Shown: positions 16,396-32,024 of the stretch, one piece after another
Numbering within the stretch: the stretch's first letter is position 1
How the letters are laid out: each line of letters begins with the position of its first letter
Assembly (NCBI GenBank): GCA_963662335.2
Contig: CAXXVD010000001.1
Span: 352,001-416,000, forward strand
DNA length: 64,000 nucleotides
Reading direction: 5' to 3'
Source of the DNA: Chloroflexota bacterium
Lineage (GTDB): Bacteria; Chloroflexota; UBA11872; VXOZ01
Program-made: the position numbers and the translations under genes
Notes under the pieces: model-generated
What the model saw: only the letters and a program-made list of their open reading frames with translations
Told to the model about the DNA's origin: nothing
Database searches by the model: none

Positions 16396-16890
16396 CTATC
16401 TGCGCCAATTTCTCCTCTTACGCGCAGATCTCTCATACATCTCGTCCACCAGCAAATCGCCACCCCGCGCCGCCGCGGCCGCCAGCCTATCGCAGCGCTC
16501 ATTCTCCGCAATGCCCACGTGGGCGGGCACCCACTTGAACGTCACCTGCTGCGCGGCGGCCAGTTCCAGCAGACGCGCCCAGAGGTCGGGGTTGAGGGCT
16601 TTGCCGCCGCGCGGGCGCTGCCAGCCCCGCGCCTGCCAGGCTTGCGCCCAACCCTTGCTCATGGCGTTCACCAGGTACTCGGAGTCGCTGTAAAGGGTCA
16701 CCGCGCACGGTTCCGCAAGCTGCTCCAGCGCCCGGATGGCGGCCAGCACCTCCATCCGGTTGTTCGTGGTCTTGCGATACCCGGCCGAAATCTCCTTGCG
16801 ATGCCGCCCAAACAGAATCACGGCGCCGTACCCACCCGGTCCCGGGTTTCGGATGCACGCGCCGTCCGTGTAGATCGTGACAAGTTTCAT
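16396..16890 (-). CDS. rnhA: Ribonuclease HI
   Basis: YTDGAC..NPGPGG, TTNNRME, SDSEY, N.DLW, WV.AH, NERCD. Confidence 0.97.
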   Translation of the reverse strand: MKLVTIYTDGACIRNPGPGGYGAVILFGRHRKEISAGYRKTTNNRMEVLAAIRALEQLAEPCAVTLYSDSEYLVNAMSKGWAQAWQARGWQRPRGGKALNPDLWARLLELAAAQQVTFKWVPAHVGIAENERCDRLAAAAARGGDLLVDEMYERSARKRRNWRR

Positions 16891-17055
16891 GGGAACGATG
16901 CAGTCCTCCGCGGGCACGGCAAGCCGCCGCACACTACCGGCGCGCGCGCCGGAGGCAAAACGAAAGGAGCGTTTCGCTCCCCGCGCCGCCAGGAAGAGCG
17001 AAATGCCCCTCTTCGTTCAATCTGAACCGTGTTGAGAGCCGGCACGGGCTCTCGC

Positions 17056-17364
17056 TTAGCCGCCGCCTCAGCCGGCGGTATCCACACCGCTTATCTTGAA
17101 GCCCCGGCGCGCGCCCTCGTTCACGAACTCCACCGCCGCGCCGTCCAGCGCCGCGAACGCCTGCGGGTCCATCACCACGCCGACACCGGCGGCATCCACC
17201 ACCTGGTCGTTCTCTTCCACTTCCTGGTCGAAGCCCATGCCGAAGTTCACCTTGCCGCACCCGCACTCGCTCTGCACGAAGATGCGCAGCTTGGCGTCGG
17301 CCAGGTCATTGGCCGCCATCAACCGCAGCAACTCCGCCGCCGCCGTATCCGAAACCGTGATCAC
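17056..17364 (-). CDS. IscA/HesB family Fe-S assembly protein, candidate C-terminal selenoprotein (ends at 17068 if UGA is a stop)
   Basis: ITVSD.AA, LRIFV..CGCG, F.MGFD, LDGA.VEF, GFKI; tail AG-UGA-GGG-UAA followed by a hairpin. Confidence 0.8.
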
Positions 17365-17566
17365 GCTATTGCTCTCTTTCTTCCAACCGTCCGCTCAATG
17401 CTGTAACCCACATTCCCGCATCGGCGCTATAGCACGGAACCCCGCCCCGGCGTCCGCAATGCCGTGAGGACCGAGTCTGTGTAGTCCACATCCGTTCAAC
17501 TGAAGGAGGGAAAACCTATCCTGGCTTCCTGGAGAAGCCCTATGGGAAGCCGCTTGTTGACTTCCG

Positions 17567-18134: not shown

Positions 18135-18509
18135 TGGTGGAGATGGGGGAGAGTCGAACTCCCCGTCCAGAGTTGTTCTTCCTGCAACCTCTACGAGCGT
18201 AGTCGGCTTTTGGGTTTCGCTTTACAGGGCACGAGCGGACGAAAAACCCTGCAAACTAGCCTCCATTTGTCTTTCGCAGTCTGCGAAGGCGGCGGACGTA
18301 ATCCGCGTGGACTGCGGCGCCCCGGCTGGTAGGTCGCCCGGGCCGCGCTCGCCGGAGAAAGCGCGGGCGGACGTCACGGCTTTAGTTAAGCCGCGAGAGC
18401 AAAATTGTGCTTGTTGGCACTTAAGAAAGTTGCCATCTGATTAACGAGGGTGATGGCGCCTCGGCTCGCAGTTCCAGGCCTCCCAACCCTGTCGAATCCA
18501 CTCATCCCC
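18135..18509 (-). ncRNA. ssrA: tmRNA
   Basis: 5' GGGGATGAGTGGATTCGAC; 3' T-arm GGTTCGAC-like and ...TCTCCACCA; tag ORF (A)ANKHNFALAA* at 18418-18386; extended -10 TGATATACT upstream. Confidence 0.97.
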
Positions 18510-30980: not shown

Positions 30981-32024
30981 ATGACACCGCCAATAAAGCT
31001 AACCAGTCTCGCCGCTTGCGCCGGCTGAGCGGGCAAACTCGGCCCGGCCGAGCTCGCGCAGGTGCTGCGCGCCTTTCCCTCCCAGGCCAATAGCAATCTG
31101 CTAGTGGGCCTCGCCGCGCCCGACGACGCCGCCGTCTACCGCCTGAACGACCGGCAGGCCGTCATCAGCACGGCGGACTTTTTTCCTCCCGTTGTGGACG
31201 ATCCGTATGACTATGGGCAAATCGCTGCCGCCAACGCCCTGAGCGACGTCTACGCCATGGGCGGCGAGCCGCTCTTTGCCCTGAACCTGGCCGGCTTTCC
31301 CGACGACCTGGACCTGGACATCCTGGGCCGTATCTTCCAGGGCGGCGCGGACAAGGTAAGCGAGGCCGGCGCGGTGATCGCGGGCGGGCACACGGTGACC
31401 GATGCGGAACCTAAGTACGGCCTGGCCGTGACCGGCCTGGCGCACCCCGACCGCCTCTTTACCAAGGCCGGCGCGCAACCGGGCGACCTGCTGGCGCTCA
31501 CCAAGCCGATCGGCACGGGGGTGATCACCACGGCCCACAAGCGCGATTGCGTCGAGGCCGCGCACTTTGATGAAGCCGTTGCCAGCATGTGCCGCCTAAA
31601 CGCCGGCGCGTCGCGGCTGCTGCAACAGATCAACGTACGCGCCTGCACCGACGTCACCGGCTACGGCCTGCTCGGCCACGCCATGGAGATGGCGCGCCAC
31701 GGCAGCGTGCGCTTTGCGATCGACGCGGAAGCCGTGCCCCTGCTGCCCGGCGCGTTGGCCTACGCCGAGGCCGACGTGGCGCCGGGCGGCCTGGACCGCA
31801 ACCGCGCCCACCTGCGGGACGAAGGGCTGCTCACGCTGGACGCCACCATCCCCCCGGCCTTGGCCGCGCTCCTCTTCGATCCCCAAACCAGCGGCGGCCT
31901 GCTGGCAGCCGTCCCACCGCGCGCGCAAGCGGGTCTCGCGCAGGCGTTCCGTACCGCTAACGAACCCTACTGGATTGTTGGCACGGTTACCGAGGGCAGC
32001 GGCATTGGTGTTGAGTCGGCGTAG
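30981..32024 (+). CDS. selD: Selenide, water dikinase with in-frame UGA (Sec16)
   Basis: MTPPIKLTSLAACAG-UGA-AGKL in frame with DDAAVY, DFF.PVVDDP, NALSDVYAMGG, GGHT, DVTGYGL, DPQTSGGLL. Confidence 0.95.

Follow-up and report, generated by a model that had tools for sequence, protein, structure and literature searches.

A probable C-terminal selenocysteine in a divergent IscA/HesB-like protein of a Chloroflexota bacterium

Among proteins of the IscA/HesB type, selenocysteine (Sec, U) is known from the HesB-like selenoprotein family TIGR01911 (HesB_rel_seleno), which carries the motif UxGP and is the only selenoprotein of this type in the table of a 2026 review (PMC13188914); 11 bacterial members are given by Zhang et al. 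2006 (PMC1794560). The review also names bacterial families with Sec near the protein end, i.e., the UXX-star families NF041114 and NF041211, the KCU-star family NF033934, the UXPK-star family NF047649 and SaoC (NF040734), and for some of these star families it mentions Sec as a proposed metal ligand (PMC13188914). Here, we analysed a stretch of 64,000 nucleotides from a Chloroflexota bacterium (the window; contig CAXXVD010000001.1, positions 352,001 to 416,000, assembly GCA_963662335.2) and describe an IscA/HesB-like gene on its reverse strand (17056..17364). As judged from its sequence, this gene very probably encodes an unannotated C-terminal Sec in a divergent IscA-like protein that is kept in a genus of uncultured Chloroflexota, and it would combine the kinds of selenoprotein known from the HesB-like and the C-terminal star families.

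Two further systems are relevant for comparison. The A-type carriers IscA, SufA and ErpA contain three invariant cysteines in the arrangement C ... C-x-C, a pattern that is also visible in the aligned PDB sequences. The second system is artificial: mammalian thioredoxin reductase, which ends in ...G-C-U-G-stop, was reportedly expressed in Escherichia coli by means of a bacterial Sec insertion sequence (SECIS) placed after the stop codon, so that translation of a bacterial SECIS is dispensable (Arner and co-workers 1999; Liu, Engelberg-Kulka and co-workers 1998). The engineered construct and the window gene share the order of UGA, a few codons, a stop codon and, at a fixed short distance, a hairpin for SelB binding; whereas the engineered layout is artificial, that of the window gene would have arisen naturally and be kept across a genus. 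Survey supplements aside, our full-text literature searches, including those on IscA selenoproteins (judged by title or abstract) and on Chloroflexi selenoproteomes, did not turn up any A-type carrier described as having Sec at its C-terminus.

An IscA/HesB-like gene with an invariant in-frame TGA

Read up to its first stop codon, the open reading frame (ORF) extends from a GTG at 17364-17362 to a TGA at 17070-17068 (17068..17364, reverse strand, as for all features of this gene given below) and encodes 98 residues. Its only cysteines are C34 and C36, which form C34-G-C36 within the motif SECGCGK, and the C-terminus is devoid of Cys. The end of the ORF reads VDTAG-TGA-GGC-GGC-GGC-TAA. If the TGA (17068..17070) is taken as the proposed selenocysteine U99, the frame continues over three glycine codons (GGC GGC GGC, 17059..17067; tail G100-G102) to a TAA (17056..17058), the proposed true stop. 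The full proposed frame (17056..17364) then consists of 98 codons beginning with the GTG, the Sec codon, Gly-Gly-Gly and the TAA, and would yield a protein of 102 residues ending in ...ISGVDTAG-U-GGG. ORF and translation thus agree with a preliminary description of this locus, which had noted CGC at the N-terminal ligand site, the lack of a C-terminal Cys and the TGA-GGC-GGC-GGC-TAA end. Ahead of the GTG lies the purine-rich AGAAAGAGAGC (17371..17381), identical in all 17 orthologs described below, which by its sequence and position is likely to be the ribosome-binding region.

The protein matches the Fe-S_biosyn fold (Pfam PF01521, 37.3 bits; cut-off 26.3). Its best match among the NCBIfam models is TIGR00049, which it misses marginally with 58.4 bits (U read as C) against a cut-off of 58.8, and in the same scan it stays far under the cut-offs of the IscA, SufA and ErpA equivalog models. 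Relatives in the PDB are 1nwb, 2apn, 1s98/1r94 and 2d2a (E = 7e-12 to 2e-4). The same genome also encodes a canonical three-Cys carrier (C2:510872-511147, GGCSG...CSCGQSF) and a Cys-free HesB-like paralog (C3:163213-163476).

To follow the TGA across related genomes, we searched with the 102-residue read-through product in 41 genomes, comprising the own genome, 16 others from its genus and 24 from different families of the class. The product was matched to its very end and with exactly one TGA in all 17 genomes of the genus, at 78-98% identity, while the matches in the 24 genomes of other families did not exceed 35% identity and none of them contained a TGA. The 17 orthologs align without gaps, and their variable columns are distributed unevenly over the 98 codons (26, 14 and 75 at the first, second and third codon positions, respectively). 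The few changes at the first two positions compared with the third indicate purifying selection on the protein. Around the TGA, the 14 bases GGC-TGA-GGC-GGC-GG are invariant, and the sole variable column of the nine nucleotides that follow it corresponds to the wobble position of the third Gly codon (GGC, GGT or GGA), a synonymous change. An in-frame TAA or TAG is located three or four codons past the TGA in every ortholog; it differs in type and place while the TGA is constant, and it follows either directly or as TCC-TAG, GAA-TAG or AAA-TAG. The resulting tails read UGGG (n=7), UGGGE (n=8), UGGGK (n=1) and UGGGS (n=1) ahead of the stop. The surroundings are far more variable, with 27 of 31 columns differing in the spacer between the hairpin and the terminator (both described below) and 45 of 47 in the 5' flank beyond AGAAAGAGAGC. 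As a small control we inspected the stop codon of the neighbouring rnhA gene, which is TAG in nine, TAA in two and TGA in one of the 12 readable ends (13 matches, one of which runs off its contig).

The same TGA region is also found on the metagenome contig L094 and on contigs of three further sequencing runs, which represent three additional close strains. One of these contigs (X6; run label sponge metagenome) shows 19 differences over 16940-17384, with the TGA region retained. Another one (X5), of low depth (5.7) and from a related strain, lacks two nucleotides at 17053-17054, in the gap between the TAA and the hairpin, which leaves a spacer of 12 instead of 14 nt. All 11 database proteins of this gene end at or before G98. 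Because gene callers cut the protein at the TGA, its proposed key residue is invisible in the databases.

A four-Cys subfamily with cysteine at the position of the TGA

A phmmer search against 1.84 billion representative sequences gave 983 matches at E <=0.001. Outside the genus and a single intermediate protein, P0012, the nearest matches were CGCG...GCxCG(G)H proteins of at most 43% identity. They belong to an IscA-like subfamily with four cysteines, for which we found neither a name nor a study and which is marked by an N-terminal CGCG, a C-terminal G-C-x-C-G-(G)-H and usually a His at the end. The window protein resembles this subfamily in its length, its Gly-rich tail and its N-terminal part, where C-G-C-G and the aromatic-Gly-Met motif of the subfamily (F/Y-G-M; F-A-M in one member) are present as ECGCGKVNFGMGFD. 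At the C-terminus, however, the G-C-x-C-G of the subfamily is replaced by G-U-G-G-G. In an alignment of 21 sequences (A2), U99 aligns with the first Cys of the subfamily C-x-C and G101 with the second. Distant homologs thus carry Cys at the position of the TGA: all 16 genomic loci of the subfamily have two Cys there (15 CxC, one CC) followed by ordinary stops, and none has a TGA, whereas the genus of the window has U-G-G. Most of these loci are from metagenome-assembled genomes of Chloroflexota (Dehalococcoidia, Anaerolineales), with one labelled Bacillota and two labelled Proteobacteria.

A quick maximum-likelihood tree of 59 rows and 106 columns sets ten canonical carriers apart (support 97) and places the genus together with P0012 (support 98) inside the four-Cys group, beside members of the Dehalococcoidia type (support 84, not starred). 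Rooted on the canonical carriers, the tree suggests that Cys-x-Cys is ancestral and U-x-G derived. One substitution is enough to turn TGC into TGA.

In pairwise alignments with canonical carriers of known structure, C36 falls on the one ligand Cys of their N-terminal part. In A2 and in the pairwise alignment with 1nwb, U99 corresponds to the first Cys of the canonical CGCG, and in the pairwise alignments with 2apn and 1s98 it corresponds to the second. Because the pairwise alignments disagree, the register relative to canonical IscA is ambiguous. The placement of the TGA at the C-terminal CGCG position, as put forward in the preliminary description, therefore holds for one Cys of this motif, with ambiguity as to which. 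The same description had suggested a swapped ligand set of two Cys and one Sec; C34, C36 and U99 are indeed the set proposed here, but the CGC at the N-terminal site is shared by the whole four-Cys subfamily as its hallmark and hence no swap peculiar to this protein. Compared with IscA, SufA and ErpA, the window protein has the fold, the N-terminal ligand Cys (C36), a counterpart of one CGCG Cys (U99) and a total of three chalcogen ligands in common. It differs by an extra C34 and by the arrangement C-x-C ... U-x-G in place of the canonical C-x(63-65)-C-x-C.

We also compared the protein with the IscA/HesB-type selenoprotein families. With TIGR01911 it shares a small IscA/HesB fold, a Sec-decoding prokaryotic host and the proposed replacement of a conserved Cys by Sec. 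Membership was nevertheless rejected, as the protein reaches 24.8 bits where the cut-off is 66.35, lacks the UxGP motif and carries Cys (C-G-C-G), not Sec, at the N-terminal site. Its sole TGA is codon 99, followed by G-G-G, so that unlike in TIGR01911 the Sec would stand at the C-terminal ligand site, with 3-4 residues left to the end, and the hairpin would not be part of the coding region. A second model, NF038090 (IscA_HesB_Se; described in the library as IscA/HesB family protein), aligns over positions 1-99 of 101 at 41.8 bits, against a cut-off of 85. Members above this cut-off were found in none of 301 Chloroflexota genomes (five of them, used for this count only, unpublished: G249, G198, G293, G075, G171), none of 401 genomes of the phylum to which genome G321 belongs, neither G321 nor G322, and none of 14 controls; two near-members with 81.5 and 79.8 bits are free of TGA. 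The idea that the four-Cys subfamily itself corresponds to NF038090 was discarded, since its best member (E = 1.6e-16) matches more weakly than these two sub-cut-off proteins. Relative to NF038090, for which no true member was found, the novelty of the window protein is judged by score and carries a caveat.

The star families named in the review are alike in having Sec 1-4 residues before the stop, which requires an insertion signal downstream of the coding sequence. They are unrelated to the window protein by family, and none of them appeared in its NCBIfam scan at E up to 1.

A SECIS-like hairpin and the selenocysteine machinery of the genome

Behind the TAA lies a SECIS-like hairpin, GAGAGCC-CGUGCC-GGCUCUC (17034..17053), in the 3' untranslated region (UTR). 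It starts 14 nt after the UGA, its 7-bp stem beginning two bases past the TAA. The loop of 6 nt, in which the second base is G, begins 21 nt after the UGA, and the bases following the hairpin are AACACGG, without a U-run. In all these respects the earlier account of the hairpin proved accurate. Folded alone, the hairpin has a free energy of -11.4 kcal/mol compared with a mean of -4.29 for shuffled sequences (z = -3.91; 0/200 shuffles equal it). A bacterial SECIS model after Zhang and Gladyshev, as summarised in the review (PMC13188914), specifies a loop of 3-9 nt, a stem of 4-16 bp, G at loop position 1 or 2 with G or U as the usual next base, a UGA-loop distance of 16-37 nt and a minimum free energy of <=-7.5. 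The hairpin agrees with every one of these constraints (loop 6, stem 7 bp, C-G-U, 21 nt, -11.4 kcal/mol).

The hairpin is kept throughout the genus. Its seven pairs are standard in all 98 cells over 14 distinct sequences; five pairs are invariant, one shows a compensatory exchange between G-C and A-U (7 vs 7 rows), and in one row a C-G is changed to U-G. The covariation score of 0.174 exceeds that of shuffled alignments (0.098 +/- 0.021; 0/500 reach it), and sliding the hairpin partner gave at most 50% pairing. The loop has five or six bases, of which CGUG is invariant. RNAalifold, applied to 15 orthologs, recovered the hairpin as well as a longer helix further downstream. This long hairpin with its U-run (16956..17011), which includes a terminator-like site at 16982..16964 plus TCGTTTTG, is a probable intrinsic terminator. 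Since it lies about 20 nt beyond the small hairpin, the latter is not the terminator. RNAalifold moreover predicts a helix of CCGCY.GC and GC.GCGG on either side of the Sec codon (17056-17082), with the UGA inside the 4-nt loop UGAG; this helix may explain the invariant GGC of the flanking Gly codons.

To judge how often such a hairpin arises by chance, we surveyed the stop codons of long coding-like ORFs of the own genome. A loose pattern (a stem of >=6 bp, a spacer of 9-30 and a loop of 3-6 in which GU occupies positions 1-2 or 2-3) was found behind 20 of 1375 TGA-ending, 5 of 631 TAA-ending and 22 of 1680 TAG-ending ORFs. The corresponding numbers for a strict pattern (>=7 Watson-Crick pairs, spacer 11-20) were two, zero and two; the TGA set still holds some true Sec sites, e.g. 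the phosphatase-like ORF described below. Because a match after TGA stops is this rare (20/1375 loose, 2/1375 strict), the hairpin is beyond what chance would readily provide.

The host is equipped to decode Sec. Its assembly (3.23 Mb, five contigs, 96% complete) encodes selA (562 bits), selB (381 bits) and a tRNA-Sec (67.8 bits; called tRNA-SeC with anticodon tca by ARAGORN). Across the genus, selA is present in all 17 genomes and selB in 16, the sole miss being an assembly of 69% completeness. The fourth component, selD, is located in the window at 30996-31925 (forward strand, 379.6 bits) and contains one in-frame TGA at 31026 in the context ACAG-U-AGK. By its reading frame, selD is itself a selenoprotein, which bears out the earlier statement that this genome recodes UGA. 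A likely SECIS candidate of selD, GCGCAG-GUG-CUGCGC, follows 27 nt after its UGA. The ten bases GCCGGCUGAG around the UGA are common to selD and the IscA-like gene.

Family searches combined with a hairpin scan yielded at least seven further candidate selenoprotein genes beside selD, each with one in-frame TGA at an expected Cys position; a two-flank coding-potential scan missed selD, whose Sec is near the N-terminus. They include a formate dehydrogenase alpha gene (C5:266479-268341; CNRT-U-HAPS, downstream hairpin loop GGUCU) and three AhpC/TSA-like genes with a U-x-x-C motif (C5:322270-322620, C1:107706-108068 and C1:156732-157091), in which the TGA contexts are W-U-RC, T-U-PVC and G-U-INC and the hairpin loops GGU, GUU and GGUCU. 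Two adjacent thioredoxin-like ORFs (C1:723904 and C1:724646, forward strand; locus L159) carry the TGA in Y/F-U-x-G-S-L (UxxS) and have SECIS-like hairpins with the loops GGUCG and GUU. The first of them scores 22.6 bits with Pfam Thioredoxin (cut-off 23.5) and has hydrophobic N-terminal stretches by eye; a search of the genome with PF00085 returned no TGA-containing thioredoxin. Finally, an ORF resembling DSP/PTP phosphatases (C1:262323, forward strand; locus L160:297-1001) has its TGA at the position of the catalytic Cys (ALVH-U-GSGFGGAGT). PF22784 (53.3 bits) and PF00782 (37.2 bits) both span this TGA, and a hairpin with a stem of 6 and the loop GUA follows 16 nt after it, making a selenocysteine phosphatase possible. 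Altogether, the selenoproteome is fairly rich for a 3.2-Mb Chloroflexota genome. Across the candidate SECIS hairpins other than that of the IscA-like gene, spacers range from 12 to 27 nt and stems from 6 to 7 bp, and the combination of a 14-nt spacer with a 7-bp stem recurs behind the TGA of one AhpC/TSA-like gene.

Proposed decoding, competing explanations and neighbouring genes

Taken together, the Sec machinery, the conservation of TGA and hairpin, the homology to Cys and the fit to the SECIS model support what the preliminary description had proposed, namely a Sec with its SECIS in the 3' UTR. With a probability of roughly 0.8, the UGA at codon 99 is decoded as selenocysteine through a SECIS located wholly in the 3' UTR, giving a protein that ends in G-U-G-G-G. 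In this scheme, SelB and Sec-tRNA(Sec) would be recruited to the 99th codon of the 102-residue IscA/HesB-fold protein by the 7-bp hairpin 14 nt past the UGA, entirely behind the TAA. The product would end in ...VDTAG-U-GGG, and across the genus in G-U-G-G-G(-E/K/S). It would descend from an ancestor with two Cys at either end (CGCG ... GCxCGGH), Sec having replaced the first C-terminal Cys and Gly the second, the direction from Cys to Sec being the one that the rooted tree suggests. C34, C36 and U99 would constitute a three-ligand set, the same ligand count with which canonical A-type carriers hold an Fe-S cluster between two subunits. Whenever Sec insertion failed, termination at the UGA would leave a 98-residue protein without the U99 ligand. 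We infer Sec insertion from sequence features; a role of U99 as a cluster, metal or redox ligand is suggested by analogy, and cluster binding and transfer are predicted from the protein family only. A redox function through a selenenyl-sulfide is conceivable as well. A more speculative extension, which we regard as doubtful, is a selenium-dependent switch in Fe-S (or metal) trafficking in which a selenolate would hold the cluster, one and the same mRNA giving a three-ligand form (C34, C36, U99) with selenium and a 98-residue two-Cys form without it. The setting of such a switch would be a selenoprotein-rich Chloroflexota lineage with close relatives in a run labelled sponge metagenome.

Several observations weigh against decoding as Sec. 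None of the close orthologs found has Cys at codon 99, as a classical Sec/Cys pair would, and the nearest Cys forms are 34-44% identical. The sole intermediate relative, P0012 (59% identical, protein sequence only), ends in ...GVSSGGG one residue past the TGA of the genus; a word-based search with P0012 found only P0012 itself, and its contig was not among the results of a metagenome scan. Replacement of the second Cys by G101 would also be expected from decay after a truncating mutation. At G98, G100 and G101 the codon GGC is invariant, while 8 of the 11 invariant Gly codons inside the coding sequence vary synonymously. This invariance implies that the constraint acts at least partly on the RNA, where it could serve something other than Sec. 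The tail of three to four codons is too short for a statistical coding test, and RNAalifold pairs the Gly bases behind the TGA with the codons ahead of it. As to the hairpin, its covariation consists of one compensatory pair, whose change tracks the tree split of the genus and hence is probably one event. In the 41 nt from the UGA of the own genome's sequence alone, a competing fold of -17.2 exceeds the hairpin in stability. The first loop base is C, whereas all eight other candidates have loops beginning with G (GGUCU, GGU, GUU, GGUCU, GUG, GGUCG, GUU and GUA). A search of 16900-17450 with Rfam (E up to 10) did not return a SECIS family; its only three matches, all to miRNA families and sub-threshold, lie on the terminator hairpin, and the result is uninformative.

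Because of these points we retain, as an unlikely alternative, that the TGA is an ordinary stop. A mutation from TGC to TGA would then have truncated a four-Cys carrier to 98 residues, and the GGC run and the hairpin would form a conserved 3'-UTR element that acts otherwise, for instance in stabilising the mRNA, as a processing site or in binding a protein. Cys-poor or Cys-free HesB-like proteins do exist, as seen for the paralog of this genome (C3:163213-163476) and for the loci L096-L123 of metagenome contigs. Truncation would predict the loss of the second Cys codon, and the bases around the TGA, being over-conserved for coding and mutually pairable, the C at the start of the loop and the lack of a Sec/Cys pair among close orthologs would all fit. 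However, three coincidences would be needed: the stop would have to coincide exactly with a ligand Cys, a SECIS-like hairpin would have to follow at a suitable distance, and the host would have to be rich in selenoproteins. A hairpin of such geometry follows just 0.15-1.5% of ordinary TGA stops. Moreover, the TGA is invariant in 17/17 genomes, while both the next in-frame stop and the stop of rnhA change type, and the lone substitution in the nine nucleotides past it is synonymous for Gly. Read-through of the UGA without Sec, by a near-cognate tRNA for Trp or Cys or by leaky termination, would place a short Gly tail on some of the molecules. The tail residues are conserved, and a UGA followed by G and by a structured downstream region can favour leaky termination; yet the genome contains a complete Sec system, the hairpin fits a Sec signal, the homologs have at this position a Cys, the residue that classically pairs with Sec, and TGA is the normal stop of 1375 long ORFs in this genome. 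We therefore consider such read-through highly improbable. The apparent loss of the C-terminal motif is all that speaks for a decaying pseudogene or an assembly artefact. This explanation was rejected as the least probable one, contradicted by 17 independent assemblies (11 of them single-contig), by the contigs of three further runs, by the codon-position-dependent variation (14 and 26 vs 75 of 98) without indels, and by the conserved start region and terminator.

If decoding of U99 as Sec holds true, the IscA/HesB fold would have recruited Sec a second, independent time, at the C-terminal instead of the N-terminal ligand position and within a subfamily of unusual double CxC layout. The gene would further provide a clean natural case of a bacterial SECIS that acts entirely outside the reading frame, while the usual statement, as given in the review, places bacterial SECIS elements within the coding sequence (PMC13188914). 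The short hairpin could serve as a compact tag for C-terminal Sec insertion, and spectroscopy could test directly for a Sec ligand in such a cluster carrier.

The IscA-like gene is solitary and has its own terminator. Just upstream of it lies the tmRNA gene ssrA (18135-18509, reverse strand; tag peptide ANKHNFALAA), and just downstream the RNase HI gene rnhA (16396-16932, reverse strand); no Fe-S assembly genes were seen among the neighbours. Lastly, the metagenome loci L096-L123 represent a Cys-free HesB-like family with the signature ...AAYQEDDG-x-VNFGMGFD... and an acidic C-terminal tail, in which the NFGMGFD motif is shared. At least some of these copies closely precede an ORF starting with MNYLPIFLDLR.

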